24,948 nucleotides of DNA from Candidatus Zhuqueibacterota bacterium (GCA_029262035.1 JAJDAE010000165.1:1-24948), one strand, 5' to 3'. Positions 1 through 24,735 are shown, numbered from the stretch's first letter. The notes: generated by a model from the sequence alone, not told the origin. Translations and numbers: made by a program.

Positions 1-1443
1 GAAGTCGGCATCCGGAAAACTTTCGGAGCGACTAAGGACATGCTGCGGCGACAATTTCTTAGTGAATCTATTATACTCACTGCGGTTTCAATCCTCATTG
101 CGATCGGATTTCTATATTTTATTTTACCTTCATTCAATGACTTTGTCGGGAAATCATTGTCGCTGAATTGGATTACAAATGTTTGGATAATCCCCGGACT
201 ACTCTTTATCGGTTTGGTCGTGAGCCTGATTGCTGGTATTTACCCTGCATTTTTTCTTTCCTCATTTGTTCCGGTTGAAGTTTTGAAAGATCAGACATCT
301 GCTTCTTCAAGAAGATCCGGATTACGCAAGTTTTTGGTGGTAGTGCAATTTGCCATTTCAATTATGATTGTGTCGGGAACCGGCATTGTTTATGACCAGC
401 TTAACTATGCCCGCTCAAAGGAGTTGGGTTTCGATAAAGATAATATTTTAATCATCACCATTCGAGATAATATCCAGCCCTCACAAATTCCTGCTATAAA
501 ATCACAGCTTTTGCAAAACTCTAATATTTTGGCTGCGGCAACTTCTTACGATTTGCCAGGTAAGGATTTAAATCACACGGCAATGGAAATTGAGAATGCC
601 AGCGGTGAGATGCAGCAGCAAACGTTTCAATTTATGCAAATCGATCATGACTTTATCGATTTGATGCAAATGCAATTAACAGCCGGTAGAAGTTTCGATC
701 GAACCATGACTACCGATGCAACCCAGGCGGTTATGGTAAACGAAGCTGCTGTCAAGAAATTTAACTGGCAAAATCCGGTTGGTAAAAAAGTGAGATTTGT
801 TGGCTCCGAAGATGATCTTTTGGTCATTGGCGTTGTGAATAATTTTCACATTGGCTCGCTGCATCATGAAATTGAACCAACCGTAGTTCTTTTGTCCGAA
901 AAGCTCGGCGGCAAAATGTTTTTGAAACTTGCAACAAATCAGATTCCGGAAACTATCAGGTTTCTGGAAAGGCAATGGAGTGCATACGATCCGGACTTTC
1001 CAATGGATTATGTTTTTTTGGATACAAACTACTACAAACTTTATGAAACCGATCAAAAGCTTGGTCAGGTTTTCAAATATTTTGCACTTCTTGCAATCTT
1101 TATTTCCTGTCTGGGATTAATTGCTCTTAGTTCCTTCAGTACAGAACAGAGAAAAAAAGAAATTGGCGTTCGCAAAGTTTTAGGGGCATCAAGTGTGAAA
1201 ATTGTATTTCTGCTGATTAAGGATTTTTTGATTTTGGTTTTAGCTGCAAACTTTTTAGCATGGCCGGCCGCTTATTATGCGATGAATAAATGGTTACAGG
1301 ATTTCGCCTATCGGGTTGATTTAGATTGGTTAGTTTTTTTTGCGGCAGGACTAACTGCTTTTTGTATTGCAATTTTGACGGTGGGGTTACAAACAATAAA
1401 AGCTGCTTTAGCAAATCCTGTTAAATCGTTGAGGTATGAGTGA
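1..1443 (+). CDS. ABC transporter permease, MacB/FtsX family, 5'-truncated by the window edge (C-terminal half of a protein with two FtsX domains)
   Basis: The frame of the 40..1443 ORF stays open back to nt 1. It reads EVGIRKTFGATKD there, the FtsX-domain loop motif E-[IV]-G-[IV]-R-K-x-x-G-A. The same motif recurs near the C-terminus (KKEIGVRKVLGASS) followed by TM helices, with a MacB-like periplasmic domain in between. It ends in the LRYE tail also seen in the permease at 23500..24735. Confidence 0.9.
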   Translation, partial: EVGIRKTFGATKDMLRRQFLSESIILTAVSILIAIGFLYFILPSFNDFVGKSLSLNWITNVWIIPGLLFIGLVVSLIAGIYPAFFLSSFVPVEVLKDQTSASSRRSGLRKFLVVVQFAISIMIVSGTGIVYDQLNYARSKELGFDKDNILIITIRDNIQPSQIPAIKSQLLQNSNILAAATSYDLPGKDLNHTAMEIENASGEMQQQTFQFMQIDHDFIDLMQMQLTAGRSFDRTMTTDATQAVMVNEAAVKKFNWQNPVGKKVRFVGSEDDLLVIGVVNNFHIGSLHHEIEPTVVLLSEKLGGKMFLKLATNQIPETIRFLERQWSAYDPDFPMDYVFLDTNYYKLYETDQKLGQVFKYFALLAIFISCLGLIALSSFSTEQRKKEIGVRKVLGASSVKIVFLLIKDFLILVLAANFLAWPAAYYAMNKWLQDFAYRVDLDWLVFFAAGLTAFCIAILTVGLQTIKAALANPVKSLRYE

Positions 1444-2115: not shown

Positions 2116-2727
2116 TTACTCGAGAAGTTGAGGAACCGGTTTTAATGTGCTGGGTTTTACTGTGGTAATACCCAGTTGGTCTAATTCTTCTGCCTGTTTC
2201 TCAAACTGAGAAATAACGTAGCGTACATTTCTTGAATAATAATCGGCCTCGGAAGTTGAGTCCGGCTGCACTGTGCTGTTTCGGGAAAGTCGATTTGTAA
2301 AACTAATTATCTGTCCAAGGAGTTTTTTCTGTTCGGTCAGAATAGTAATAACTTTTTCCTTGGAAATTAATTGTTGGTTCATTTCAGAGCGAATATCGTC
2401 AGCGGTTGACTTGTTTTGCTCGATGGTGATTTGTAGTTCAGCGAGCTGCGTTTCAAACCCAAGTGCCTCACTTCGAAACTGAACATTGGCATAACCGAAC
2501 GAAACCGCTGTGCCGATTGCCAAACCAACGACAATCATAATAATTGGAATAATTATATGCCCATGCTCTTTAAACCAAATTTTGCTCATCACACTGCGGC
2601 GAAACCGGCTTGAACCTTTCGTGGTGAACAGCTCCCGAATTACTTTGATATCAAGAACTTTTTTGCAATATGGACAAACGTCGACTGTTTTATCGAGGCG
2701 GGTTGCACAATTTGGACAATAAATCAT
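2116..2727 (-). CDS. Zinc-ribbon membrane protein (N-terminal CxxC...CxxC, one TM helix, C-terminal coiled coil)
   Basis: I chose the internal ATG at 2727 (MIYCPNCATRLDKTVDVCPYCKK) because AAGGAGAGGGG lies directly upstream. The track's longer N-terminus has no RBS. TM segment is IIIPIIMIVVGLAIGTAVSFGY. Heptad-like Q/E/L-rich region follows. Confidence 0.7.
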   Translation of the reverse strand: MIYCPNCATRLDKTVDVCPYCKKVLDIKVIRELFTTKGSSRFRRSVMSKIWFKEHGHIIIPIIMIVVGLAIGTAVSFGYANVQFRSEALGFETQLAELQITIEQNKSTADDIRSEMNQQLISKEKVITILTEQKKLLGQIISFTNRLSRNSTVQPDSTSEADYYSRNVRYVISQFEKQAEELDQLGITTVKPSTLKPVPQLLE

Positions 2728-2848
2728 ATATCCCCTCTCCTTGGGTGCAATATTAGGAAAATAAATGAGTGGGCGAAAAATAAACATTGTCATATTCCAA
2801 AGCAAGGAAAAAAGCTTGATGATTTGAAAGATTTAATTTAGTTGATAA

Positions 2849-5800
2849 TCAGGTTGCATTGCCAAACATATCCAATTGTGGGCGTTGCAAATGCTTGTCG
2901 ACTACCTCTTTCGGTTTTTTCCAGCGGATGACTTTTTCAGCGATCAAATTGGCTTCTCCTTTTATTCTGGATTGTACTTTGCCCACCACGGTGAATGGCC
3001 CATGCCCACGGATTACATCTGCAAATTTTTCATACACTTCCGGGAAAAAGATGATTTCACAAATGCCGTATTTATCTTCGAGCGATAGAAATTTCATATA
3101 CTTTCCGGTGACGGTTTCCTGCAGCCGGGAGGTTACGTACCAGCCGGTAAATTGTACTTTTCGATTTTTGTGGCGCTCAAGTTCCAGGGAGGATATCATG
3201 TTTTCCCACGGAATCAAGCCATCGTAAAGTGCAAGCGGATGGGCAGTAACCCCGAAACCCAGCAGTTCCAGTTCGGTGAGAATTCGGAGCGCTCGCGGAT
3301 ACGGTACGGGGAAAATTCCTGCCGTCAAGTACTCAGCCTTGCTTTTGCTGCGTTTATTTTTGAAGTAGCTCTGGGCTTTCATTAGCAGCAGAGGCTCGCT
3401 CTTCTCAAGTGAACGTAACGCCCCGCAGCGAATCAGGTTTTCGGCCTCTTTTTCTCCGGCGTGAGTCCGTTGCAGGAAATTGTAAATATCGGTGAATGGC
3501 CGTTTTTGGCGTTCCCGGACAATCCTGACTTTAGTCTTCTCCGTCAACTCAAAGACAGGAGACAAACCAACGCGGATGGCATCCCCTTCTTTGGTAAAAA
3601 GAGTATCAGAAAAATTAACATCAGGCGGTAAAAGCGGAATACCCTTTTGCCCGTTACCCAAATCAAGGCGGCGGCACTCTTCAATATAAACCGCAGTACT
3701 GTAAAAACCGCCGTGGTTATTCAGGACTGCCGTCATGTGTTCAACCGGAAAATAGCATTTTAAAAATGCTGTTTGAAATGCCAGAATGCCGTAAGTGGCG
3801 GCATGCGCTTTGTTGAAGCCAAAACCAGTGAACCGTTGTAAAAAATTCCAGACCTCCATAGCTTTTTCAAGGCTCAGGCCTTTTTTCTGTGCGCCTGTAA
3901 TAAATTGGTCGTGCAGGGACTGCATCAGTTCAGGGTTGCGGTCTTTGGTCATGGCGCGGCGTAATATATCACCCTGCGCCAGCGAAAATCCGGCAACCTG
4001 CTGAGCGATAAGCAGCACTTGCTCCTGGTAAATAGTCAGCCCGTAGGTTTCGTTCAAAACCGGTTCAAGAATTGGGTGGGTGTAAGGCACAGAGTGAATG
4101 CCGCCCCTCCGAAGAATATACTCATCTTTCAGGCCGGTATCGCCAACGCCCGGACGAATTAGCGCCACAGCGACCACCGTGTCTTCCACACTATCGGTTT
4201 GCATTTTACGCAGCACACTGCGCACGAGCGGGCTTTCCAGTTGAAAGCAGCCTAACGTTTGCCCTGATTTAATCATCGCTATGGTTTTTGCGTCATTTTT
4301 GGGGATGACCTGCATATCCAGCGCAGAAGATTTTTCGGTTTTCTTTAGGAAGTCGAATTTGGCATCGTCGAATTTTTTGTCAGATGAATAAGTCGCTTTA
4401 GGCTCTTTGAGAACTGTCTGTAATTTAAATTCATCTTTTGGGGCTGCCTCATTCCAATCGGGCACTTCAAGCAATAGTTCAAGATTGAGTTTTTTATTGC
4501 AAAGATTTTTCGGCGTTTGCAACATGCGGTAATTTTCTTTTTCCTGAGAAGAACGCTGACCATAACGTGATTGCTTCGCCAACTCCACGCAATCTGTAAT
4601 AATGCTCAACGAGCGCACACCGAGTAAGTCCATTTTTACCAGGCCAAGTCGTTCGATGGCGTGCATGTCATACTGTGAAATCACAATGCCTTTGCCGGCC
4701 ACTTCCAGCGGGGTGTAGTCTGTTAAACTGCAGGGCGCAATGATAACGCCGCCGGCATGAATGGATAAATGCCGAGGAACCCCCGCCAGGCGATGGCACA
4801 TTTTTAGAATTTCCCGGAAGGTTCGGTCTATTTTTTTGCCGCTTTTAAGCTGTGGTATGGTTTTGAGATTTTTGTCCAGCCCTGTAATTTTTGCCATGTA
4901 TGGGAATTCGCACGTCAGTTCGCCGATTTCTTCTTCGGTTAGGCCGAAAGTTTTTGCCACATCACGCACCGCCGCCCGGCTTTGAAATGTGTTGTAGGTG
5001 CAAATCATCGCGGTTTTATCCTTACCAAAGCGTTTGTAAACATAGTCCAGAACTTTGTCACGATTTTTCCAGCAAATATCAAGATCAATGTCCGGGGCAT
5101 CAGTACGCTCGGGATTGAGAAAACGCTCGAAATATAAATTGAAATGAATCGGGTCGGCAAAGGTGATACCGAGCACGTAGGAGACGATGCTGTCCGCTGC
5201 GGATCCGCGCCCAACGCAAGGGATGAATTCTCTACGACAAAAATCGACGATGTCTTTGACGATTAGAAAATAATCGGTGAAGCCCAAATTGTTGATGGTT
5301 TTCAATTCGTAATCGATACGTTGTTTTACTTTTTCCGTCAATGGGGTGTAGCAAATTGCTGCACCTTTAAGGCACAGTTCCCGAAGATGAGTGTAGGGTG
5401 TTTTGTTATTGGGTATTTCCATTACCGGGAAAACCGGTTTCCCAAGTTGAAATTCGAGGTTGCAGGCATCAGCAATTTTTTGTGTATTTTCCAGTGCATC
5501 AGGAAACTTGGAAAAGAGCTGCTGCATCTGCCAGGGCGCTTTCAGGAATTGCTCTTTATGACCTGCGGTTCGCACCCGTTCTTTCACTGTGTTTTGCGCA
5601 ATGGCGTGTAAAACTTTTCGTACAGCTAAATCTTCCGGCTCAAGAAAATGGACATCGTTTGTTGCTACGACCGGCACGTCGTATTTCCGTGCAATTTCGA
5701 CCAGGCGGTCGTTCAGGAAATCATCCCATGGGACAAAACGTTGCAGCTCAAGATAGAAGTTATCGCCAAATTTTTGCTGCATCCAGCCGCAATGTGCGGT

Positions 5801-6226
5801 GGCCTCGCCCATATTTCTATTTAAAACAAGCCGGGAAATCTGTCCATTTTTTCCACCGGAAAGTATAAGCAGGCCATCCTTATATTTAACAATATCTTCA
5901 ATTCTACCTTGAAAATTTAAATGCCCGCCCCGTAAATGTGCGGCGGTGATAATGCGGCAAAGGTTACGATAGCCTTCTAAGTTTTTTGCTAAAAGCACCA
6001 AAGAAGAGCTATCTTCCAGCGTAACTTGCGCCCCTATAATCGGCTTGAGATCATTTTCTTTGCAGAGTTGATAAAATTCAATCGCCCCGTAAAGACCGTT
6101 ATGGTCGGTTAGGGCGATTGCCTGCATGCCGAGTTTTCGTGTTCGTTCAACAAGTTGGCGAATAGATATTGCGCCATCGAGGAGACTGTAATTACTGTGA
6201 GAATGTAAATGAGTATAGGTGGCCAT
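2849..6226 (-). CDS. dnaE: DNA polymerase III alpha subunit family (DnaE-type C-family polymerase)
   Basis: PHP domain (YTHLHSHSNYSLLDGA, ALTDHNGLYG). Palm motifs GRGSAADS and PDIDLD. Fingers motif FGFNKAHAATY. C-terminal OB fold (VQFTGWYVTSR...). Start set at ATG 6226 (MATYTHLH) rather than the track's TTG at 6256. Confidence 0.93.
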   Translation of the reverse strand: MATYTHLHSHSNYSLLDGAISIRQLVERTRKLGMQAIALTDHNGLYGAIEFYQLCKENDLKPIIGAQVTLEDSSSLVLLAKNLEGYRNLCRIITAAHLRGGHLNFQGRIEDIVKYKDGLLILSGGKNGQISRLVLNRNMGEATAHCGWMQQKFGDNFYLELQRFVPWDDFLNDRLVEIARKYDVPVVATNDVHFLEPEDLAVRKVLHAIAQNTVKERVRTAGHKEQFLKAPWQMQQLFSKFPDALENTQKIADACNLEFQLGKPVFPVMEIPNNKTPYTHLRELCLKGAAICYTPLTEKVKQRIDYELKTINNLGFTDYFLIVKDIVDFCRREFIPCVGRGSAADSIVSYVLGITFADPIHFNLYFERFLNPERTDAPDIDLDICWKNRDKVLDYVYKRFGKDKTAMICTYNTFQSRAAVRDVAKTFGLTEEEIGELTCEFPYMAKITGLDKNLKTIPQLKSGKKIDRTFREILKMCHRLAGVPRHLSIHAGGVIIAPCSLTDYTPLEVAGKGIVISQYDMHAIERLGLVKMDLLGVRSLSIITDCVELAKQSRYGQRSSQEKENYRMLQTPKNLCNKKLNLELLLEVPDWNEAAPKDEFKLQTVLKEPKATYSSDKKFDDAKFDFLKKTEKSSALDMQVIPKNDAKTIAMIKSGQTLGCFQLESPLVRSVLRKMQTDSVEDTVVAVALIRPGVGDTGLKDEYILRRGGIHSVPYTHPILEPVLNETYGLTIYQEQVLLIAQQVAGFSLAQGDILRRAMTKDRNPELMQSLHDQFITGAQKKGLSLEKAMEVWNFLQRFTGFGFNKAHAATYGILAFQTAFLKCYFPVEHMTAVLNNHGGFYSTAVYIEECRRLDLGNGQKGIPLLPPDVNFSDTLFTKEGDAIRVGLSPVFELTEKTKVRIVRERQKRPFTDIYNFLQRTHAGEKEAENLIRCGALRSLEKSEPLLLMKAQSYFKNKRSKSKAEYLTAGIFPVPYPRALRILTELELLGFGVTAHPLALYDGLIPWENMISSLELERHKNRKVQFTGWYVTSRLQETVTGKYMKFLSLEDKYGICEIIFFPEVYEKFADVIRGHGPFTVVGKVQSRIKGEANLIAEKVIRWKKPKEVVDKHLQRPQLDMFGNAT

Positions 6227-6423
6227 TTTTACACAAAGTGAAATAATGTTCACCAAATATAGTAAATGAAATCTGAGAATACAAGTTTTAATTTTTGTGC
6301 TAATTAAGTTTACAAGTGGGTGATTTACTGAAAAGGGGTTACTGGAGTAATGGGAAATATTTCAACACCCAGTGCAGGTTTATTGAGGTCAATATTTTTA
6401 CGGTCTTTTTTGCCCAGCGCATA

Positions 6424-6495: not shown

Positions 6496-7008
6496 TTAAC
6501 TCGGTGGATATTTTTCAAAAATTTTGAAGATTGCTTCCTGAATTTTTTCCGGATCACCGTCAGGGTGGCCAACGATGCCCTGTGCTGCGCCGCGCCAAAC
6601 CATTTGTTTTATTTCAGGATCGACCACGTCTATAATAATACTGCCTTCCTTGTATCGGCGAACATGGGTACGCCTGCCCCAATAGCCATAGCCGTAACCA
6701 TATCTATTAATATCGACCTTGTTTTGAACGCCCACATGGTAGGCAATAAGAGCATCGGGCTTACCCTCTTTTATGAAACGATAACCTTTGGCCTCCATCT
6801 CAGTTTCTACCGCTATACGAATTCTTTTGTCAAGTAAAGAATTGGGTGGAACTTTGCCCCGTTTTTTCTTTGGGTTCGGCATCCATTTAAAGGTTTGATA
6901 TTTTGTAAAACTGACATCCCGGTCGTAATCTGTACGCACTGAAATTGATGAGCAACTCATTAAGCCGAAACCGAGAAGTAATAAAAGTGTGAAAAAATAC
7001 TGTTTCAT
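6496..7008 (-). CDS. DUF4136-like lipoprotein
   Basis: Start taken at ATG 7008 (MKQYFFTLLLLLGFGLMSCSS, a signal peptide with a lipobox Cys), preceded by GGGAGG. The mature part (VRTDYDRDVSFTKYQTFKW...) resembles the DUF4136 family from memory. Confidence 0.75.
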   Translation of the reverse strand: MKQYFFTLLLLLGFGLMSCSSISVRTDYDRDVSFTKYQTFKWMPNPKKKRGKVPPNSLLDKRIRIAVETEMEAKGYRFIKEGKPDALIAYHVGVQNKVDINRYGYGYGYWGRRTHVRRYKEGSIIIDVVDPEIKQMVWRGAAQGIVGHPDGDPEKIQEAIFKIFEKYPPS

Positions 7009-7167
7009 TTGGAAAGCCTCCCTTACTTTTTTAGTTAACATTTTTAAGAAATTGCAAATGTTATGCCAACACGATTTCTGGTTTTAATGTAAATACAAGA
7101 GGTTCAATTTACAACTAATTTTTCTGTAGAAATAGCAGGCTTGTACGAAATGGGACATAAAGTGAAC

Positions 7168-9784: not shown

Positions 9785-10045
9785 ATGTCCTCTAAAGCAA
9801 TTATTATCTCAGAAGTTGAATCGACAATAAATAAAAAATATTCGGATTGGGAAATTGGTATTACGAATGAACCTGGAAAGCGAAAAGCACAATTGGGCAA
9901 TCCGTTAAGCTGGCTGCAATGGCAAGCTGCGTCAGAAGATGTCGCATTATTTATTTTGGCTTACTTTCTCGATTCGGGTTTGAAACTTTCAGGGAAAAAA
10001 CCTGAACAAGGGAAACATGTCTTTATTCTTTTGAAGTCCGATTAG
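9785..10045 (+). CDS. Hypothetical small protein (86 aa), orphan
   Basis: ORF with a weak RBS. The segment WEIGITNEPGKRK...ASEDVA...FL..G faintly recalls GIY-YIG/T5orf172-like cores but lacks the GIY part. Convergent with motB, leaving only 13 nt between the stops. Confidence 0.4.
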   Translation: MSSKAIIISEVESTINKKYSDWEIGITNEPGKRKAQLGNPLSWLQWQAASEDVALFILAYFLDSGLKLSGKKPEQGKHVFILLKSD

Positions 10046-10058
10046 CTTATTTTTAAGT

Positions 10059-10703
10059 TTAATTTATCAGTAAACTGACTCTTCGATTTACCGGTAATCC
10101 TCGTCTTGCAGAATTTTCCTTTTCTTTGAGGCGAGTATCTGCATAACCAATGGCCACAAAACGGTTTGATAAGACATTTTTTGTAAGAAGAAACCGAATA
10201 ACGCTGGCTGAACGTGCTGTTGAAAGTTCCCAGTTTGATGGATATAAAGCATTTTGTGATAAAGGCACAGTATCGGTGTGACCTTCGACCTTTACGTTGC
10301 GACTTGCAACATCTGTTGAATTTAAAATATCCGCCAATGCGCCAAAGATTGGCGCCGAATCCTGCTTTAGTTCTGCCTTTCCGGAATCAAATAAAACATT
10401 ATCTTGAAAATTTACCAACAAGCCGTCGGGTGTGAGTTCAACATCGACACTTTCCTGAAGATTATGTTGCTGTACCAGCTCTTTAAATCTTTCCTCTAAA
10501 ACATGCAGAGGCATGGATTGACTCTTATTAAAGTATTCCATGATCATTTCGAACTTAACCTGGTCGACTTGCGAGATAGCAAAAAATAGGACAAAAAAGG
10601 CCAACAATAAGGTGACCATATCACTGTATGCAAGAAGCCAGGGCTGATCTTCTTTTTTATCAAAATTATAGGGGTTGGCGCGGTCCGGGATGTTGAGTTT
10701 CAT
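10059..10703 (-). CDS. motB: MotB-type stator subunit (OmpA-like peptidoglycan-binding C-domain)
   Basis: Single TM with the conserved channel Asp (PWLLAYSDMVTLLLAFFVLF; D28 is codon 10620-10622). C-terminal OmpA-like motifs (NWELSTARSASVIRFL, NRRVSLLI). Start is 2 nt after the motA stop. Confidence 0.85.
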   Translation of the reverse strand: MKLNIPDRANPYNFDKKEDQPWLLAYSDMVTLLLAFFVLFFAISQVDQVKFEMIMEYFNKSQSMPLHVLEERFKELVQQHNLQESVDVELTPDGLLVNFQDNVLFDSGKAELKQDSAPIFGALADILNSTDVASRNVKVEGHTDTVPLSQNALYPSNWELSTARSASVIRFLLTKNVLSNRFVAIGYADTRLKEKENSARRGLPVNRRVSLLIN

Positions 10704-10705
10704 AA

Positions 10706-11524
10706 TTAGGCAAGCGCTTTTTCAGGCGTTCTGGATATCTTACCGTTGGTTTTACTGAGCTTGCTGACTTTTTTACGGCTGCCGGCGCTTAAGTAAGCAC
10801 ATAATTTATCACGAACATAAATATAATTTTTGCCGTCGTAAAGCATGTCCACCGCTTCCAGTTCCATGGTTTCAAGCAACAGGTTGTTTTCTGCACGTTC
10901 TTTAATTTTTTCAGAAATCGGCATAAAAATAATATTCGTCAAAATTAAACCATAAAAGGTTGTGGTTAAAGCAACAGCGAGGCCAATGCCTACTTCTCCC
11001 GGATTGCTTTGCAGGGTGATTAGCATGTTAATTAAGCCGATCAACGTACCGATCATTCCAAAGGCCGGGGCGAACTTTCCCATCGTGGCAAAAAGTTGAT
11101 GCTGCTTCATTTCACGGGCCATTTGCCAGCTTATTTGGTCTTCCAGAATAACATGCGTTTCTTCTTTCGAAAATCCGTTTGCCATCATCTGGACACCATC
11201 TTGAAATATCCATAATTTTTTCATTGGGTTGGTCTCCCGGGACAGGGATTCCATGCCATCGCGTTGAAAGGAGCGGGTGGCGTTTACCATTTGATTAACG
11301 GCTTTAACATAATTATGACTGCCGGATTTAAAGATGACGAAGTAAGATCTAAATGCCCGTAATACTTCCCGGATGGGGTAGGAAACAAAAGTTGAAGCTA
11401 TTGTACCACCGACAACAATTGCAACTCCATTCCAATTCAAGAAAATTTCAATCGGTGCTTTACCGGTGTAAATGCCGTAACCAACTAAAAAGACGCCTAT
11501 TACAAAACCTAAAACAGTTAGCAT
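10706..11524 (-). CDS. motA: MotA/PomA-type stator subunit (4-TM ion channel)
   Basis: 272 aa. Two N-terminal TM helices, a ~100-aa cytoplasmic loop, then PAFGMIGTLIGLI and ALTTTFYGLILTNIIFMPIS (the two conserved Pro-containing helices). The loop has R84 and E92 at the same +8 spacing as E. coli MotA R90/E98. Confidence 0.85.
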   Translation of the reverse strand: MLTVLGFVIGVFLVGYGIYTGKAPIEIFLNWNGVAIVVGGTIASTFVSYPIREVLRAFRSYFVIFKSGSHNYVKAVNQMVNATRSFQRDGMESLSRETNPMKKLWIFQDGVQMMANGFSKEETHVILEDQISWQMAREMKQHQLFATMGKFAPAFGMIGTLIGLINMLITLQSNPGEVGIGLAVALTTTFYGLILTNIIFMPISEKIKERAENNLLLETMELEAVDMLYDGKNYIYVRDKLCAYLSAGSRKKVSKLSKTNGKISRTPEKALA

Positions 11525-11540
11525 TTTTTATCCATGTTTT

Positions 11541-12224
11541 TTAGTTTTCACTGAAGCGGGAAACGAGTTCCTTTACTTCGTCCAAATCGGGGTTAATTTT
11601 CAACGCATTCTCCCAGGCATTGACTGCGGCTTTTGTATCCCCGCTTACGTAGTAAATGGAACCACCCAGCGCATAGGCCGTTGCCGTCTTTTTCTTTTCC
11701 AGAGAATCCTTTAATACATTTAATGCGTCGGTGTATTTGCGTTCGTAAAACATCTTCTGCGCCAAATTAATATCCCGGATGATCTCGTCCGTGAGATCTT
11801 CTGCATCAAGATTTGTCGCTTCCAGGGGGTCGAAATCCTTTTCAGAATCCGGGGATTTTTTACCCAACAGGATTGAGTCGCCTTTTTGTATTTCAAGAAA
11901 ACCTTCGGGACCACGTACCAAATCTAAATTTAAATTAGTCGATTGTGGATCCAGAACCATTTCAACTTCCGTATCATTTTGCTGGAATTTTATTTTCAAA
12001 TATTCATTCTGTTGCTGTGCGGCTTTTTTACTGGGCTTTAAAGTAACAATCCTTTTTTGGTTTGAAGATTTCAATGTGTCTTCTGCTGTATTTTTTTGCA
12101 TCGCCGGGCTATTATCAGAAACAAAGTCGTTTTTTTGAAGCTCTTTTTTTGAACAACCGACAGCCAAAATCAAAAGCGCAAAAATTGTAAAAAGAAAAAT
12201 ATTTGTTTTTAACATGGCGTTCAT
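11541..12224 (-). CDS. TPR-repeat lipoprotein
   Basis: Signal peptide with lipobox (FALLILAVGCSKK). The C-terminal ~70 aa look like TPR repeats (YTDALNVLKDSLEKKKTATAYALGGSIYYVSGDTKAAVNAWENALKINPD). Start is 1 nt after the upstream gene's stop. Confidence 0.75.
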   Translation of the reverse strand: MNAMLKTNIFLFTIFALLILAVGCSKKELQKNDFVSDNSPAMQKNTAEDTLKSSNQKRIVTLKPSKKAAQQQNEYLKIKFQQNDTEVEMVLDPQSTNLNLDLVRGPEGFLEIQKGDSILLGKKSPDSEKDFDPLEATNLDAEDLTDEIIRDINLAQKMFYERKYTDALNVLKDSLEKKKTATAYALGGSIYYVSGDTKAAVNAWENALKINPDLDEVKELVSRFSEN

Positions 12225-12225
12225 C

Positions 12226-13347
12226 CTAAAGTGAGAACTGCAACAAAAATAGCTCGAAATGAGAGCCGGAAACTTTCATTCGGATCGGAGTATCGGTTGA
12301 ACTGACATTGGATGAATTAAACTCCGATCCAAAAATTGTTGACACACCTGCCGAAACCGAAAAACGGCTGCTAAGATCAGATCGCAACCCAAAACCGATT
12401 CCTGTGATATCGGACATCTTGGTGGTAAAATAACGAGTCACGTTTAAATAAATTGAAAGCCAATCAGATGAAACGCTTTTTTTATTCTTTAATAAAGTTG
12501 AATTAAACATGACTTTGAAATTAAATGAAACCGGCAGGAAAGCACCGGCGCCTCCTTCTTTTGCATAAAATGTGTTGTCTGCAAATTCAGTATTGTTGAG
12601 CTTTATGCCCTCGGAAAGAAATGACACGCCTGCACGGAAATCATATCTGAATCGGCTTTGCGGCTCGAGGTATTGATATATCCCAAAGTAGATGGCATAC
12701 TGCACCAGCCGATCATTGAAACCCGAATTGATCAATGAGTCCGCAGATGCATCGATATCCACACTAAAGACTTCAACCCCGGCATTAATACTGCGCATGA
12801 GGGGATTCAAAACTGCCGGCTCAAAACTCTTTTCGTACGCTGTGTAGGAGTGAATCCACAAAATATCGTTGGTGCCGGTTTTGTTCAACCGCAAGTCGAG
12901 GAACAGCGCTTTGCCTTCAACGTAGGTCAAGCTGCCTTCCAGAAATGCGTCAATACGCAGACGTTTGCCGACTTTCCACAGTTCGTCCGGAGATGGCAAT
13001 GCATTCATTATTGAAAAGCTGCTGTCAGTGGATGATATTTTTAACGTGTTCATGTCTGGCAGTGAGACTACTACCGGTGTTTCAAGGCTTTTGAAAATTT
13101 CTTCGAGCCGGCTTTCAAAATGGTCTTTTAAAGGTGCTGGAATATATGCACCCTCAACTGCTAAGTTGTAAACGGCAATGCGTTTCAAACCAGGATTTAT
13201 TTCAGCGAGGTCTGCCGGGATTTGGTTGAAAATGTCTTCCATTAAGTTTAAAATTTTTTCATTGGTGGTGCCGTTTTGAGCAAAACCAAACCCGCAGAAA
13301 CAGAGCAGGTAAACTACGATTAAATTAGTTTTAAGCAGCTTCTTCAT
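12226..13347 (-). CDS. Secreted protein: N-terminal FlgO/CsgG/LpoB-like alpha/beta domain plus a beta-strand-rich C-terminal half (possible outer-membrane barrel)
   Basis: Signal peptide (LLCFCGFGFAQ). RIAVYNLAVEG...DAFLEGSLTYVEGKALFLDLRLNKTGTNDILW matches, by eye, the KIAV-x-F...G-x-V...L-x-L-R-L-x-D pattern of that domain class. The C-half has alternating hydrophobic and aromatic strands. Confidence 0.6.
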   Translation of the reverse strand: MKKLLKTNLIVVYLLCFCGFGFAQNGTTNEKILNLMEDIFNQIPADLAEINPGLKRIAVYNLAVEGAYIPAPLKDHFESRLEEIFKSLETPVVVSLPDMNTLKISSTDSSFSIMNALPSPDELWKVGKRLRIDAFLEGSLTYVEGKALFLDLRLNKTGTNDILWIHSYTAYEKSFEPAVLNPLMRSINAGVEVFSVDIDASADSLINSGFNDRLVQYAIYFGIYQYLEPQSRFRYDFRAGVSFLSEGIKLNNTEFADNTFYAKEGGAGAFLPVSFNFKVMFNSTLLKNKKSVSSDWLSIYLNVTRYFTTKMSDITGIGFGLRSDLSSRFSVSAGVSTIFGSEFNSSNVSSTDTPIRMKVSGSHFELFLLQFSL

Positions 13348-13351
13348 CGTT

Positions 13352-15148
13352 CTACGAAATCCTTTTTAATCTTAGTTTGCGCATCATCGCACGCCTTGCA
13401 TCGGCCACTTCACTTTCCGGAATATTAATATTTACCTCAAGGCTGGCGCGAACCAATTCACCCAGTTTCTCAGGCAGCGAAGTGATGATGCCTTCCACGA
13501 CATTATCATCGAGCGTAATCAACGACTTGGCCAGAGTGTCACGGTCAATCTCCAGAGCTACTTCGCGCATTTTGTCACTGGACTGGTTGATAAGCTGGCC
13601 GAAAGTCATAAATTGCTTGTTCACTTTTCGAGCCAGGAAAACATCTTTGGTTTGGATATACTGAATGGTTTCGTTTTGCTCATCTTCATCCATATAGTCG
13701 AGAACCTTGACTAAGGCGTCGGTACCGTTGGCGCGAACGTAGCGCATTTGCTGTAAATCGTTGGCACGCACCGCCAACTGATTGGCAACATGCTTGTAAA
13801 CATCAGCCGGAATTTTATCGATATTTCCCATGGCCGAGAGAACAATTTTGCGTTCATCGGAGTCGAGCTTGCTAATTAATTTTGCTGTCCGGTTGGTTTT
13901 TAGCTGTGCAAGTACAATTGCCATAACACCGGTTTTAAGCGGCTTGATCAAATGCTGCAACTGTTCATCCGTCATGTGGTTCAGAAATTCCAGCGCGTCT
14001 ACTTCCGAATCGTATTTATCTTTTAAAATCAGCTTGTTGGCCTCGCCATCAAATTGCGTTAAAAGGCGCACGGAGTTTTGTTCAACTTCTTCGGGTGTGA
14101 GCAGGGTAATTCGTTGGTGAATATCGATTGTAAGTTGTTGGCCAAAATGTGGTTCCATCAGGTTGGTTAAGGATCTCGATGCAACAGACAAAACAATTGC
14201 CGTATGAAATAGCCCTTCATCGCCTTGCTCCTCAATCCAGCCGCTAAAAACTTTTGAACTGGCATTGGGCGCTCCGACGATAACATCTATCACCCGGGCC
14301 TTCAGAGCATCGCTGCTTTGTACGATTTCATTTTTCGTTGAGCCGTTTGCCGCTGCACGCGATGGCAGAGTAATGGTTTCATTTGGTGATAAAACTTTTG
14401 CCTTTGAAGCAGCCTCATCGGGGTGCTTCAAAAATTTCGCGATATTCCGCTGACCGGCCCAAAATAAGAGTAGGAGCAGTAAAGCCAATCCTGCTGCGAA
14501 AACATAGGGCATCCAATCGACTTTAGATTTTTGAGGCTCGTTAAAAGCTTCAGGTTTTGCCAGAGATTCATTTAAAGTCGCTGCAACCTCTTCCTCATCT
14601 TCCGGGAAAAAATCAGCTTTTTCAGGAAAGTCCAATCCTTCAATACGAACAGCATCGCCACGGCTGGGTTCGAGGTTGGCGGTTAAATTCACAAAGCGGC
14701 GAATAAAAGACCAATCCTTTTGTACCAAACTTTTGTCAACGAGAACATCCACACGGATGCGATTTATCTCGAATTTTTTCTTGTTAATTTGGCTACGTAA
14801 GTTATCTTGCGGCGCTTCTTTTGCTTCCGCTAAAGATTCCGGTAAATAGGGCAGTCCGGGCAGATTCGTTAAATCTTTGCTAAGCAGTGCGTCCGGCAGT
14901 TCGGGCAGAATTGTTTTCGGCGAAACCTTTTGTAATTTCACCCGGGTATTAACTACAAATTTGTTTTCGGGGTAGTATAACAGAAGAGCATTTTGAAGAT
15001 TCCAGGTCAGGTTGGCTTCCATACTTTTTTCAATTTCGCCCAGTGGTTTTTCTGCGCGAAAGGATTGTATGGCAAGTACCGGTCTAATCCCGAAGATTAT
15101 AACTGCGCTAAATAATAGCGTCTTGAAGCAATTCATAGAAAGTTTCAT
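13352..15148 (-). CDS. Membrane protein with a FliF-like periplasmic segment fused through a TM helix to a full FliG-like (N, M, C) cytoplasmic region
   Basis: aa 9-26 form a hydrophobic signal or TM1. aa 128-175 (INRIRVDVLVDKSLVQKDWSFIRRFVNLTANLEPSRGDAVRIEGLDF) resemble the FliF C-terminal ring motif ending in RGD-x-V-x-V-x-x-x-F. TM is at aa 213-231 (MPYVFAAGLALLLLLLFWA). aa ~283-598 align by eye along the whole of Thermotoga/E. coli FliG. Example segments are FLNHMTDEQLQHLIK..VMAIVLAQL, NGTDALVKVLDYMDEDEQN and REVALEIDRDTLAKSLITLDDNVVEGIITSLPEKLGELVRASLE. Confidence 0.8.
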   Translation of the reverse strand: MKLSMNCFKTLLFSAVIIFGIRPVLAIQSFRAEKPLGEIEKSMEANLTWNLQNALLLYYPENKFVVNTRVKLQKVSPKTILPELPDALLSKDLTNLPGLPYLPESLAEAKEAPQDNLRSQINKKKFEINRIRVDVLVDKSLVQKDWSFIRRFVNLTANLEPSRGDAVRIEGLDFPEKADFFPEDEEEVAATLNESLAKPEAFNEPQKSKVDWMPYVFAAGLALLLLLLFWAGQRNIAKFLKHPDEAASKAKVLSPNETITLPSRAAANGSTKNEIVQSSDALKARVIDVIVGAPNASSKVFSGWIEEQGDEGLFHTAIVLSVASRSLTNLMEPHFGQQLTIDIHQRITLLTPEEVEQNSVRLLTQFDGEANKLILKDKYDSEVDALEFLNHMTDEQLQHLIKPLKTGVMAIVLAQLKTNRTAKLISKLDSDERKIVLSAMGNIDKIPADVYKHVANQLAVRANDLQQMRYVRANGTDALVKVLDYMDEDEQNETIQYIQTKDVFLARKVNKQFMTFGQLINQSSDKMREVALEIDRDTLAKSLITLDDNVVEGIITSLPEKLGELVRASLEVNINIPESEVADARRAMMRKLRLKRIS

Positions 15149-21437: not shown

Positions 21438-22706
21438 ATGTCAAAGAAAAAAATTATCATTTTTTCATCAGCGGTTGTTTTAATACTTCTGGTGGGTTTT
21501 CTTATCAATGTTAAAAACGGAAAAACCGACGAGATAGAAGTACAAACAGCCCAGGTAAAGCGTGGGCAGATAATTGAAACTGTGAACGCAACCGGTAGAA
21601 TTCAGCCTAAAACCCAGGTGAAAATCAGCGCCGATGTGGCTGCCAAAATTACTCATCTCGAAGTAGAAGAGGGAGACTGGGTTGAAAAGGGCACACTCCT
21701 GGTTGAACTGGATAAAGAGAATTATCGTGCCGCCGTTGAAAGCGCAGAAGCGAACCGCCGCTCAAACGAGTCCAATGCGCTGCTGGCCAAAGAAAATATG
21801 TTGAAAACGCAGAAAGATTTTGAACGTACTAAGGAGCTTTTTGCTAAGGACCTGGAATCACAAGCAACGCTTGACCAAATGTCAGCGGCGTATCAGGTTG
21901 AAAAAGCACGGTATCAATCTACGTTAGATATTGTTGCACAAGCAGAAGCATCCTTAAAGCAAGCCAAAGATAATTTCTCCAAAACCACAATTTATGCACC
22001 GATGTCCGGTACCATCAGTGAGTTGAATAAAGAAGTGGGTGAAATCGCGCTCGGTTCTCAGTTTCAGGAAGATGTTATCTTGATAGTTTCCGATCTGGCC
22101 GGAATGGAAGCTGAAGTTAATGTTGATGAAAATGATATCGTCTCCGTTTCTCTCGGCGATACCGCAACTATTGAAGTGGATGCATTACCGGATGTAAAAT
22201 TTAAAGGCATTGTTTCTGAAATTGCCAGTAGCGCAACCATAACCGGCAATGGCACTGCCGACCAGAAAACCGAATTCGAAGTTACAATTGCCGTTCTGGA
22301 ACCTGGCGAACGCCTGCGCCCCGGTATGACAGCAAGCGCTGATGTTATCACCGATATTAAAGAAAATGTTCTAAATATCCCAATTCAAAGTGTTGCTCTA
22401 AGGACGGTAGAGCAATTGCAGGAAGAAACTGATGGTGACAGCGGAGAAGCAATTGCCGATGACCTGCCAAAATCTGAATATACACCGGACAAAGATGGTT
22501 TTGTTCAGGTTGCTTTTGTAATTGAAGATGGAGTTTCACTGGCAAAACAAGTAATAACGGGCATTCAAAGTGAGAATGATATAGAAATTACGAACGGGCT
22601 CGGCGAGGATGAAGATGTTGTAATTGGCAGTTATCGCGCTATCAGTAAAGATTTGCAAAACGGAACTGAAGTTATAATCGGTGATGGTAAAAAAGACGAA
22701 AAGTAG
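21438..22706 (+). CDS. Efflux transporter periplasmic adaptor subunit (HlyD/MacA family)
   Basis: N-terminal TM anchor, lipoyl-like halves (TGRIQPKTQVKISADVAAKITHLEVEEGDWVEKGTLLVELD ... IYAPMSGTISE), a long coiled-coil hairpin and a beta-barrel domain. GAGGAG RBS. Confidence 0.9.
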   Translation: MSKKKIIIFSSAVVLILLVGFLINVKNGKTDEIEVQTAQVKRGQIIETVNATGRIQPKTQVKISADVAAKITHLEVEEGDWVEKGTLLVELDKENYRAAVESAEANRRSNESNALLAKENMLKTQKDFERTKELFAKDLESQATLDQMSAAYQVEKARYQSTLDIVAQAEASLKQAKDNFSKTTIYAPMSGTISELNKEVGEIALGSQFQEDVILIVSDLAGMEAEVNVDENDIVSVSLGDTATIEVDALPDVKFKGIVSEIASSATITGNGTADQKTEFEVTIAVLEPGERLRPGMTASADVITDIKENVLNIPIQSVALRTVEQLQEETDGDSGEAIADDLPKSEYTPDKDGFVQVAFVIEDGVSLAKQVITGIQSENDIEITNGLGEDEDVVIGSYRAISKDLQNGTEVIIGDGKKDEK

Positions 22707-22718
22707 TTGAGGATAAAA

Positions 22719-23432
22719 ATGGCATTAAATATTCAAAATATCTCAAAAAAATATGTAATGGGCATCGAGGAAGTACACGCTCTGAAAGATGTTTCCTTGA
22801 AGATTGATAACAACGAATATGTCGCGATAATGGGACCCAGCGGTTCGGGTAAATCAACTATGATGAATATACTCGGCTGCCTGGACATCCCGACAACCGG
22901 CACCTATCATCTCGAAGATGAAGACGTCAGCGAAATGGATGATGATCAACTTGCGGACGTTCGCAACCGAAAAATTGGATTTGTATTCCAGACGTTTAAT
23001 CTGATCCCTCGCGCGGATGTTTTTCACAATGTGGAGTTGCCTTTGATTTATGGCAACATTGTGCCGCAAAAAAGAAAAGTTATGACCGATGAGGCGATTG
23101 AAAAAGTCGGCCTTACGGACAGAGCGCACCACAAGCCGAATGAACTCTCCGGTGGACAGCGCCAAAGGGTTGCCATTGCGCGTGCCCTGGTAAACAACCC
23201 GGCGATAATCTTCGCAGATGAACCCACAGGTAACCTGGACAGCGTAACCGGCCGGGAAATCATGGGGATTCTCGACGGTCTGCATCGGGCCGGCAATACA
23301 ATTATTCTTGTAACCCACGAAAAGGAAATCGCCGAACATGCACACCGGATTATCTGGTTACGTGACGGGCTGATTGAATCGGACACGGTGACACAACGTG
23401 CTGCCGCTACGATGGAAATTGTAAATAATTAG
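22719..23432 (+). CDS. ABC transporter ATP-binding protein (MacB/LolD-type stand-alone ATPase)
   Basis: Walker [11 protein letters not shown]-loop, signature LSGGQRQR, Walker [10 protein letters not shown]-loop VTHE. ATG at 22719 preferred over the track's TTG at 22707 because GAGG lies 6 nt upstream. Confidence 0.94.
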
Positions 23433-23499
23433 AAATTAATTTATTGCCGCGCCTGGTAAAATTCTGACACGTTTAAATCCAGCCGGTAGGAAAAGACAC

Positions 23500-24735
23500 A
23501 TGAGAAAATTCTACTCGACAACAGCAGCATTTCGTATTGCTCTGGAAGCCATACGCGCAAATAAATCCCGTGGCATTTTAACCACGCTGGGTATTGTGAT
23601 CGGTATTGTGGCTGTGGTCACAACCATGACGGCCGCCAACGGGCTCGGCAATCGATTTAAAGAAAGCGTTTCGGCATTGGGCTCTGACGTACTTTATGTC
23701 TCACGCCGGCCATGGGTTTTTAGCGGTAACTTTTTTCAATTCCGCAACCGCCAAAACTTGCAGATGCGGGAGGCACAAAAACTTAATACCGGTTTAAAAA
23801 ATGCGTTGGCGATTAACCCAACCACAAATACAAATAAAAATGTGAAATACCTCTCCAAAACCCTGGAAGCAATAAATATCATTGGTACAACGGAAAAACA
23901 CATGGTGGTTTCTTCATCCGTTCCGGAGAGCGGGCGTTTTCTCACCGGGTTCGACATTCAGTCTAAGAAAAGGGTTTGTGTGATCGGTTCAGAAATAAAG
24001 GAAAATCTTTTTGGTGACATTGAACCCATCAACAAAAAAATGAAACTGGGTCGTTACACTTACCGCGTGGTTGGCGTGATGGAAGAGCAGGGCAGCGCGG
24101 GTTTTTTTGGCGGACCGAATTTTGACCGACAGATTTTTGTGCCCATCACTTCATTTATGAGTTCCTTTGGCAGCCATAATCGTGATTTTAATATTGCCGT
24201 AAAGGCAGCTCCAGGCGTTGTATTGGCCGACTTTGAGTATGAGGTTATCGGGGAAATGCGAAAAATCCGCAAGCTCAAACCAACTGAAGAAGATGATTTT
24301 TCAATTAACCAGATGAATCAATTGGTGGGTGCTTACAATAATGTGATGGGGGTAATAGTCATAATCGGGCTGGTTATCACCGGCATTTCATTATTTGTTG
24401 GCGGTATCGGTGTGATGAATATTATGTTCGTTTCGGTGACTGAGCGTACCAAAGAGATTGGCGTCCGAAAAGCCATCGGCGCGAAAAGGAAATCTATTTT
24501 AACGCAATTTCTGTTTGAGTCTTCAACCATTTGTCTAATTGGCGGCGTATTTGGTATTGTGCTTTCTTTCGGCATTACTGCCTTGATTAATAAACTTGTC
24601 ATGCCTGCCACCATTTCATTGCCAATTGTTTTTGTAGCACTTTTGGTTTCGGTATTAACCGGCATTTTTTCCGGATTTATACCCGCTTTTAAAGCCTCAA
24701 AACTCAACCCGACCGAAGCCTTGCGTTATGAATAA
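23500..24735 (+). CDS. ABC transporter permease (MacB_PCD plus FtsX domain)
   Basis: N-terminal TM (GILTTLGIVIGIVAVV), a ~230-aa periplasmic domain, then the FtsX domain with KEIGVRKAIGAKRKSI and a C-terminal LRYE. Confidence 0.9.
   Translation: MRKFYSTTAAFRIALEAIRANKSRGILTTLGIVIGIVAVVTTMTAANGLGNRFKESVSALGSDVLYVSRRPWVFSGNFFQFRNRQNLQMREAQKLNTGLKNALAINPTTNTNKNVKYLSKTLEAINIIGTTEKHMVVSSSVPESGRFLTGFDIQSKKRVCVIGSEIKENLFGDIEPINKKMKLGRYTYRVVGVMEEQGSAGFFGGPNFDRQIFVPITSFMSSFGSHNRDFNIAVKAAPGVVLADFEYEVIGEMRKIRKLKPTEEDDFSINQMNQLVGAYNNVMGVIVIIGLVITGISLFVGGIGVMNIMFVSVTERTKEIGVRKAIGAKRKSILTQFLFESSTICLIGGVFGIVLSFGITALINKLVMPATISLPIVFVALLVSVLTGIFSGFIPAFKASKLNPTEALRYE

Follow-up and report, generated by a model that had tools for sequence, protein, structure and literature searches.

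The window considered here, a 24,948-nt stretch of Candidatus Zhuqueibacterota bacterium (GCA_029262035.1, JAJDAE010000165.1:1-24948), carries on its minus strand a compact cassette of five genes, the predicted products of which, hereafter A to E, are a FliF/FliG-like fusion protein, an outer-membrane protein, a TPR lipoprotein, MotA and MotB. Profile searches, structural models and the comparison of gene neighborhoods lead us to propose that the product of this cassette is probably a self-contained, non-flagellar rotor-stator machine, driven by ions and spanning the cell envelope, with its output at the outer membrane or the cell surface. The most economical form of this proposal is that a flagellar-type rotor-stator pair operates on its own, with a short collar passing the motion outward. 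All five open reading frames (ORFs) are intact, with gaps of 4, 1, 16 and 2 nt in the order A-B-C-D-E, and the ORF listing returns exactly the coordinates and gaps given for five minus-strand genes at 10059-15148 in an earlier note on this DNA (Table 1).

Protein A is predicted, from profile matches and an AlphaFold2 (AF2) model, to be a natural fusion of a FliF-type domain resembling the third ring-building motif (RBM3), a single membrane helix and a full FliG with its N, M and C domains. All three FliG domains score above their Pfam cutoffs (FliG_C, E = 2.2e-12, 47.7 bits against 23.3; FliG_M, 1.4e-8, 35.3 bits against 25; FliG_N, 5e-6, 27.5 bits against 25), and a 27-sequence profile of the A family matches FliG in the PDB at 2e-24, spanning residues 21-319 of Salmonella FliG. 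Moreover, in Foldseek searches of the PDB, the AF2 model (pLDDT, the predicted local distance difference test, of 75.8) aligns over 310-336 columns with full-length FliG (8wiw, 3hjl, 8umx) at a probability of 1.0, and the last FliG_C subdomain superposes on the MotAB-bound FliG fragment 8ucs_H with a root-mean-square deviation of 1.9 Å and a TM-score normalized to the target (TMt) of 0.82. MgtE_N also matches A (Pfam, 2.4e-8); the homology to FliG and FliF that the earlier note had claimed for this protein is thus supported by domain models, family profile and fold comparison, and is not merely a generic MgtE_N similarity. The NCBIfam fliG model TIGR00207 gives an E-value of 3.7e-18, yet only 66 bits against a cutoff of 226.7, and because this equivalog model remains so far under its cutoff, we regard A as a separate paralogous family and not as an orthologous FliG. 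The EHPQR sequence in FliG_M, the FliM-binding motif, is lost from A: in the alignments, EHPQ is replaced by a conserved K-P-L-K-x-G and the R by A. Neither FliM nor FliN genes were found in the window or in related loci.

The FliF part of the fusion is more restricted than the label "FliF/FliG-like fusion" of the earlier note implies, as it is limited to an RBM3-like module, with a probable signal peptide replacing the first transmembrane helix (TM1) of FliF. The periplasmic region comprises only ~185 residues, and the mature protein would have a single RBM and one membrane helix; the full FliF succession of TM1, RBM1, RBM2, RBM3 with beta-collar and TM2 is not present. The AF2 model shows the topology alpha1-beta1-(insertion, residues 75-116)-beta2-alpha2-beta3, for which the FliF RBM3 topology described in PMC11481574 served as the comparison, and Foldseek places ~170 columns of A on the RBM3/beta-collar of the FliF S-ring (8z5v, 8z4d, 6sd1, 7cg7) at a probability of 1.0 and TMt of 0.5-0.57. 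Model and fold matches thus reveal the alpha-beta-beta-alpha-beta fold beside a membrane anchor by which an RBM is recognized. The insertion sits at the position of the FliF beta-collar and carries a motif, LPGLPxxP, that is invariant even in a 52-sequence alignment at 20% mean identity; RGD (163-165) and FP (174-175) are nearly invariant in the same alignment. The YscJ_FliF_C model of Pfam reaches 22.6 bits in A (E = 1.6e-4), just below its cutoff of 23.8, and E <= 1e-5 in several relatives. The N-terminal segment, which ends in a signal-peptidase-like ...AQ in the family consensus, is probably a signal peptide that is cleaved and stands in place of FliF TM1. A linker between the membrane helix and the FliG-like region is disordered in the model.

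The stator proteins are likewise of flagellar type. Protein D matches MotA_ExbB at 3.3e-25 (Pfam), and its best NCBIfam models are MotP (7e-45), PomA (1e-39) and MotA, the three lying between 1e-45 and 1e-36, as against only ~1e-4 for the TolQ and ExbB models (TolQ, 22 bits compared to a cutoff of 221). Because residues 2-257 align end to end with solved flagellar stators, MotA 6ysf (1.2e-34) and PomA 8bri (6e-25), D can be assigned a flagellar-type cytoplasmic domain, and the equivalents of P173 and P222 of Escherichia coli MotA are kept; E. coli MotA and FliG and Vibrio alginolyticus PomA, which served as references, were checked by length and by the identity of landmark residues. The MotA label given to 10706-11524 in the earlier note accordingly stands for a PomA/MotP-like MotA with a short cytoplasmic domain. 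Protein E contains MotB_plug (5.7e-18) and OmpA (8e-15) domains in Pfam, and both the plug and the channel Asp in SYSDMVTLL are invariant in all homologs compared, so that MotB is the appropriate name for 10059-10703, with its channel Asp, plug and OmpA-like peptidoglycan-binding domain. Taken together, D and E combine the features of a flagellar stator, namely the flagellar-clade MotA_ExbB fold, the MotB plug, the channel Asp and the OmpA-like domain. The Elusimicrobiota homologs of MotB are 335-400 aa in length (L004:12148-13155, L027:13131-14333; L numbers designate related loci).

A motor of the MotAB type could also indicate a Zorya-like anti-phage system, all the more so as E matches the ZorB models of PADLOC at 4.6e-20. 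These models are, however, annotated simply as MotB homologs. MotA, in which the long cytoplasmic tail is missing, has no ZorA match, none of the five proteins matches ZorC, ZorD or any further PADLOC family, and the neighborhood is no defense island. We consider a Zorya-like system scarcely credible, and Zorya or another defense system was rejected as an assignment on the PADLOC result, in which only the generic ZorB (that is, MotB) match on E was obtained.

The two remaining proteins would supply the connection with the outer membrane. Protein B, as judged from its AF2 model (pLDDT 83.9; a signal peptide, a mixed alpha/beta domain and eight long strands), is predicted to be an orphan outer-membrane protein that consists of a periplasmic domain and a barrel. 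In Foldseek comparisons the first domain resembles LpoB (4q6l, TMt 0.61; 4q6z, 0.58), PelC (9h80, 0.46) and the TolB N-domain, the best matches of the protein being TolB, at 2e-6, and LpoB; the barrel resembles OmpA (1bxw), OmpX, Ail and OprG at TMt 0.4-0.52, and the C-terminus is a typical beta-signal of outer-membrane proteins, LLQ[YF][TS][FL]. No Pfam or PDB sequence match was found among 29 family members. The "FlgO/CsgG-like" label of the earlier note therefore holds at the level of fold class, and is not supported by sequence. Just upstream of the cassette in L004 are genes of the LpoB family, and in L002 a CsgG gene is located 800 bp upstream of the cassette. The assignment of B to FlgO, CsgG or LpoB by sequence was rejected, as hhalign comparisons with these LpoB and CsgG genes were not significant.

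Protein C contains TPR_2 and TPR_11 matches at 1.5e-5 (Pfam) and a lipobox, LAVGC, which together justify its description as a TPR lipoprotein at 11541-12224; a long low-complexity linker is followed by a conserved C-terminal TPR region (AWENALKINPDL...). The lipobox Cys is kept in the KSB1 and Calditrichota homologs; the Elusimicrobiota proteins start with an ordinary signal peptide. In the Elusimicrobiota locus L004 (12148-13155), MotB carries fused TPR domains at its C-terminus (weak TPR_1/TPR_2 matches), and in the L033-type subfamily a ~1000-aa putative outer-membrane protein includes a fused C-type TPR at 42% identity. Since the TPR is fused to each of these elsewhere, we infer that C works with MotB and with an outer-membrane component.

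The cassette stands apart from any flagellar locus. Other than its own, no flagellar genes were found in the 24.9 kb window (no FliM/FliN, export, rod, hook, filament or chemotaxis genes). The flanks consist of genes for penicillin amidase, a DUF4136 lipoprotein, DnaE, an ABM protein, a class IV aminotransferase, a DUF3859 protein, FKBP, DeaD, an AI-2E transporter, a cNMP-binding protein and two MacB-type ABC systems; every gene beyond the cassette is thus unrelated to motility, in line with the unrelated flanks described in the earlier note, and with at least 9 kb of such genes on either side in the window, the cassette does not lie at the border of a flagellar cluster. An identical copy of protein A is encoded on a 27.0 kb metagenome contig, of which the window represents 24.9 kb and at most ~2 kb are unseen, so that a hidden flagellar cluster in the neighborhood is essentially excluded. 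Furthermore, in 13 annotated related loci no flagellar Pfam families occur within 8-10 kb of the cassette.

The same unit is widespread. A word-indexed search with A retrieved 47 clusters (90% identity), the members of which belong to KSB1, Calditrichota and Elusimicrobiota or to unclassified metagenome-assembled genomes (MAGs), and an exhaustive profile search of 1.84 billion representatives gave 202 matches at E < 1e-30; among the 150 matches listed (50%-identity clusters), most cover A in full, from the periplasmic domain to the FliG region. These matches add Fibrobacterales, further Elusimicrobiota and one "Pseudomonadota" MAG; for the Fibrobacterales MAGs, the analysis covered the A homologs alone. 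A wider word-indexed protein search with a divergent alignment yielded no additional relatives; the metagenome scan for divergent relatives was run with a subgroup alignment. Wherever the DNA of the locus sufficed, the order A-B-C-MotA-MotB was constant, being identical in more than 20 independent loci with unrelated flanks (17 species-representative genome loci together with L001, L002, L004, L027, L028, L029, L030, L031 and L034), and the five genes are thus conserved as a unit in several phyla, namely KSB1, Calditrichota and Elusimicrobiota; further loci come from unclassified MAGs. Within the KSB1/Calditrichota group, identity is highest for MotA and MotB (58-77%), with 38-61% for A and B; the 358-aa protein of L030 is a true homolog of B (hhalign, 97.9%).

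A decaying, functionless remnant of a lost flagellum would account for the presence of flagellar-derived core parts only, in lineages that are often without flagella. Such a relic would, however, hardly keep five intact ORFs with gaps of 1-16 nt and a gene order that holds down to 20-26% identity across phyla, nor A proteins that match over their full length in most of the listed clusters. Moreover, the invariant LPGLP, RGD and KPLKxG lie outside the flagellar consensus, and the non-flagellar B and C evolve together with the other cassette genes. We therefore consider this explanation very improbable.

Variant architectures show which parts of the system are constant. In the clusters that we call type 2 (L033:937-15047, L036-L038, L040-L042, L044, L046 and L050, from marine, hypersaline and other metagenomes), ~14 genes occur in strictly conserved order, starting with three signal-anchored proteins (one of them DUF4900), a 130-aa protein and three or four secreted DUF4402 proteins, continuing with a ~280-aa Ig-like protein and the ~1000-aa putative outer-membrane protein that ends in the C-type TPR, and closing with A, a small TPR lipoprotein, MotA and a MotB with a C-terminal extension (faint SPOR match in L033). 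Nine of the 19 secreted proteins match DUF4402 (PF14352; best 3.9e-7), and the ~280-aa protein has weak fn3_5 and PapD_N matches; an assignment of these accessory genes to a chaperone-usher system was not adopted, as PapD_N reached only 0.016-0.19 and a CS17 fimbrial subunit E = 1.4. The type 2 cluster looks like a surface-fibre or secretion module coupled to an A-MotAB motor. Type 3 (L048:9848-13637, L049 and L051-L055) comprises A-B-C (674, 368 and 229 aa in L048) next to genes for Hsp33, MarR and a TonB-dependent receptor. In L032 (1529-13684), an OprF-like barrel protein, A, MotA and MotB are encoded between giant cadherin-like proteins, one a PKD/Cadherin/Big_1/Invasin_D3 protein of 1798 aa and the other a cadherin-domain protein longer than 763 aa, which hints at a surface-adhesin cargo; L026 encodes a C-like TPR protein, A, a small outer-membrane barrel (212 aa) and a 945-aa TPR protein. 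By hhalign, B shows no homology to the 998-aa protein of L033, the OprF-like protein of L032 or the 212-aa protein of L026. Constant across architectures are A and a TPR domain, in most also an outer-membrane barrel protein, with MotAB usually adjacent; the extra genes, where present, encode secreted or surface proteins. The sister clusters suggest that the motor serves some outer-membrane or surface process, for instance the movement, assembly or release of surface proteins or fibres.

Some flagellar motors are surrounded by TPR and outer-membrane accessories (MotX, PflA/PflB, FlgO/FlgP), and the cassette could by the same token be an accessory or alternative module of a flagellum encoded elsewhere, whether as alternative rotor, as a depot for stators or as a scaffold in the periplasm. 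Published gene counts for KSB1 bear on this explanation in both directions. Most flagellated clade IV genomes have fliG = 2, motA = 2 and motB = 2-3 at fliM = 1 and fliF = 1, that is, fliG and motA are doubled beside a single fliM and fliF, which agrees with a coexistence of cassette and flagellum (PMC9012183). In two clade III genomes (GCA_002085355.1 and GCA_014729735.1), on the other hand, fliG, motA and motB are each counted once, and there is no other flagellar gene, with 0 for fliM, fliN, fliF, flhA, flhB, fliI, fliP, fliQ and fliR and for flgB, flgC, flgE, flgG, flgH, flgI, flgK and flgL (PMC9012183, Table S7). Such counts would be expected if the counted genes are those of the cassette and it occurs in flagellated and non-flagellated genomes alike; the link is indirect, as the KSB1 MAGs in which the cassette was traced (GCA_022562085.1 and GCA_022574215.1) are not in that table. 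The cassette, moreover, has its own stator and ring protein and never lies beside flagellar genes, it is present in Elusimicrobiota, with A homologs in Fibrobacterales MAGs, and A has neither the FliM-binding motif nor RBM1/RBM2, by which the export gate is held. On balance, a flagellar accessory has only a slim chance of being the right explanation.

With respect to the mechanism of a self-contained motor, we envisage that MotA and MotB form a flagellar-type stator, presumably of 5:2 assembly and with ion flow, in which the OmpA-like domain would anchor the complex to peptidoglycan. A would oligomerize through its RBM3-like domain into an inner-membrane ring that presents covalently attached FliG domains, and the cytoplasmic domain of MotA would push the torque helix of FliG_C and so turn the ring. 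A FliF-FliG fusion is mechanically plausible, since engineered or mutant fusions from Salmonella and V. alginolyticus (PDB 8z4d) assemble MS-rings (PMC11481574), and a functional Salmonella fusion is among the work that this source cites. As FliM/FliN are absent and EHPQR is lost, the motor should lack a CheY-controlled switch; as there is no export gate, rod, hook or filament, the output would have to pass from the short, proline-rich collar of A, with its LPGLPxxP motif, to the outer-membrane partners. B may form a sub-membrane ring, and a probable role of the lipoprotein C is to tether or position MotB and the outer-membrane component.

Several observations weigh against this proposal. The canonical torque pairs are MotA R90 with FliG D288/D289 and MotA E98 with FliG R281 (PMC12505986). 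In the window clade, D288/D289 correspond to A568/S569 (acidic in several other clades) and E98 to S, FliG R297 is not kept in A (P in the window), and R90 is replaced by Q in D of the window, with an R one residue later. In favor of the proposal, by contrast, the E98 position is acidic in 6 of 12 sampled lineages, and the position of R281 is occupied by K561 in A of the window and by K or R in every subfamily examined. The acidic E571, two positions beyond the D288/D289 site, is nearly universal in the A family; given these charge patterns, the torque interface appears recognizably flagellar across the family and remodeled in the clade of the window. Furthermore, the FliF sequence match of A in the window is weak (22.6 against 23.8 bits in Pfam; E = 0.26 against the PDB), no MotA/MotB genes occur within 10 kb of the type 3 clusters, the stator of which may be encoded elsewhere or shared, and no MotAB genes are present on the available sequence of L026. 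Ring formation, rotation and all periplasmic contacts are inferred. Finally, the genome of the window organism is represented by a 27 kb contig only, and many KSB1 genomes hold a full flagellum (PMC9012183), which makes cross-talk with flagellar stators conceivable.

The degraded torque charges of the window clade are also what would be expected under the main rival explanation, a non-rotary transducer comparable to Tol-Pal or TonB, in which MotAB energizes a single A that acts through B and C on the outer membrane, possibly for tethering, invagination or transport; to this explanation, its suggested uses included, we assign a small chance. The parallel in composition is striking: a stator pair, a partner anchored in the inner membrane, a TolB-N fold, a TPR protein comparable to CpoB and an OmpA-like domain. 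The stator and its partner are, however, flagellar-type. MotA scores ~1e-4 on TolQ/ExbB and 1e-45 on flagellar models, and A combines a ring-building motif with a complete FliG, known only as ring rotors. Moreover, TolA and TonB couple to their motors through a membrane helix, whereas A offers a cytoplasmic ARM-repeat domain, and B lacks the beta-propeller of TolB. We thus retain the rotary reading of the cassette. Whether it extends to a widespread, previously undescribed class of rotary nanomachines, in which an RBM3-FliG ring and MotAB drive interchangeable outer-membrane or surface modules, with neither type III secretion nor a filament, we would put at even chances, and this estimate covers the identity of the modules, namely B and C, the ~1000-aa TPR-tipped protein with DUF4402 subunits, and the cadherin-like giants.

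Table 1. Genes of the cassette and predicted features of their products (window coordinates)
Feature	Position	Strand	Basis
Protein A gene, 598 aa	13352-15148	minus	
A residues 1-27, N-terminal hydrophobic segment	15068-15148	minus	sequence, family alignment, helix 2-20 in AF2 model
A residues 36-172, predicted periplasmic RBM3-like domain	14633-15043	minus	AF2 secondary structure, Foldseek
A residues 213-240, predicted membrane helix, then basic residues (cytoplasmic side)	14429-14512	minus	AF2, sequence
A residues 271-597, predicted cytoplasmic all-helical FliG-like N, M, C	13358-14338	minus	Foldseek, family profile
A residues 558-572, torque-helix equivalent LPEK561LGE564LVR567A568S569LE571	13433-13477	minus	Thermotoga maritima and E. 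coli FliG alignments
Protein B gene, 373 aa	12226-13347	minus	
B residues 25-171, predicted periplasmic TolB-N / LpoB-C / PelC fold	12835-13275	minus	Foldseek
B residues 184-372, predicted 8-stranded outer-membrane beta-barrel	12232-12798	minus	AF2, Foldseek
Protein C gene, 227 aa	11541-12224	minus	
Protein D gene, 272 aa	10706-11524	minus	
Protein E gene, 214 aa	10059-10703	minus	

The GC content of the cassette (0.40-0.44) matches that of the window, the composition of which is uniform with no GC anomaly, and no tRNA or integration signals were detected in the window. No Rfam match at E <= 1 indicates a regulatory RNA upstream of or within the cassette, and promoter and terminator scans did not rise above shuffled expectation. 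An 86-aa orphan ORF at 9785-10045 (+) converges on the motB end at a distance of 13 nt and has no Pfam match; it was rejected as a member of the cassette, being kept in no related locus. The DUF4136 lipoprotein gene recurs a few kb from the cassette in KSB1-like loci (window 6496-7041 (-), L001:17803-18312, L028:16324-16836), which, with unrelated genes lying between, may be a matter of lineage synteny and not of function. Positions 21438-24735 (+) are occupied by a complete tripartite efflux operon of the MacB type (HlyD-family adaptor, ABC ATPase and MacB_PCD/FtsX permease), with a second FtsX/MacB permease at the opposite end of the window (40-1443 (+)); in the Calditrichota locus L002, a similar operon is located upstream of the cassette. 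A 229-aa ORF with a TTG start (2116-2805 (-)), for which only a sub-threshold zinc-ribbon match was obtained, follows directly downstream of dnaE (2849-6256).

If the proposal holds, the short list of biological rotary machines gains a new member, and the flagellar rotor-stator pair becomes a portable module that is independent of type III secretion, which bears directly on the evolution of the flagellar motor, a long-standing question; the branching of MotA and FliG will decide between exaptation of a flagellar motor and a surviving relative of a pre-flagellar rotor-stator stage. A five-gene system would, in addition, be a minimal one for reconstituting and imaging torque generation. There is also a correction to annotation: members of the A family are currently labeled "FliG C-terminal domain-containing protein", "flagellar motor switch protein FliG" or hypothetical, and A proteins labeled FliG are counted as flagellar in metabolic reconstructions of KSB1 and related phyla, so that inferences on motility from KEGG-based tables such as Table S7 of PMC9012183 may be inflated by fliG, motA and motB counts.

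Compared to the flagellar motor core, the cassette shares a flagellar-type MotA, a MotB in which plug, channel Asp and OmpA-like domain are all present, the entire FliG fold down to the C-terminal torque subdomain, a basic residue at the R281 position throughout the family, and an RBM3-like domain with an insertion at the beta-collar site. It differs in that FliF and FliG are parts of one polypeptide with one RBM of three and a collar of ~40 residues, as against about 90-110 in FliF, and in that FliM/FliN, EHPQR, the export apparatus, rod, hook, filament, LP-ring and chemotaxis genes are absent, the partners being an orphan outer-membrane protein and a TPR lipoprotein. The engineered FliF-FliG fusions join full-length FliF to FliG (~945 aa) inside a complete flagellum, whereas A is natural, 598 aa long and stands alone. 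MotX/MotY, FlgT, FlgO/FlgP and PflA/PflB are TPR/Sel1-type or outer-membrane-associated proteins that position flagellar stators. By analogy with such elaborate motors, stator positioning could be the role of C and B, although these share no sequence similarity with the proteins in question, which decorate a complete flagellum.

The cassette shares with Tol-Pal (TolQRA-TolB-Pal-CpoB) the layout of an envelope-spanning operon that combines a stator pair of the 5:2 type, a partner in the inner membrane, a TolB-N fold, a TPR protein and an OmpA-like domain; unlike in Tol-Pal, the stator is MotAB and not TolQR, the partner is of the FliG/RBM type and not TolA, B has a barrel and not a propeller, and there is no Pal. 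The set of TolQ/TolR, TolA, TolB with propeller and Pal by which Tol-Pal is defined is accordingly not found in the cassette. ExbBD-TonB, GldLM of the type IX secretion system (T9SS), AglRQS-Glt and ZorAB resemble it in that an ion motor of the MotA/ExbB family powers a non-flagellar envelope process (PMC9389320). Their A subunits belong to a non-flagellar clade and drive no FliG/FliF ring, whereas the cassette MotA fits flagellar models best, and no Pfam families of periplasmic partners of the GldM-like or Glt kind are present in the cassette. A beta insertion within an RBM3-like domain is also seen in SpoIIIAG (PMC11481574); unlike the cassette, the RBM rings of SctJ/SctD and SpoIIIAG/AH are static scaffolds of secretion or feeding channels, with neither FliG nor a dedicated stator.

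In a recent survey of how MotAB evolved, the clade of flagellar-type stators is taken as flagellar (PMC12505986), and the FliF-FliG fusions found in the literature are laboratory constructs only. In the full-text literature searched, in which subscription journals are not covered, we found no description of a FliF/FliG fusion with dedicated MotAB outside the flagellum, and no characterized system of this composition, in agreement with the earlier note. To our knowledge, the FliG-MotA torque interface has so far been known only inside flagella, and the Ton, Tol, Gld, Agl and Zorya systems each couple their motor to a different partner, none of which is FliG. Thus, in its composition the cassette lies outside every known kind of system, and as far as its operation can be deduced, it would work like a flagellar motor core.

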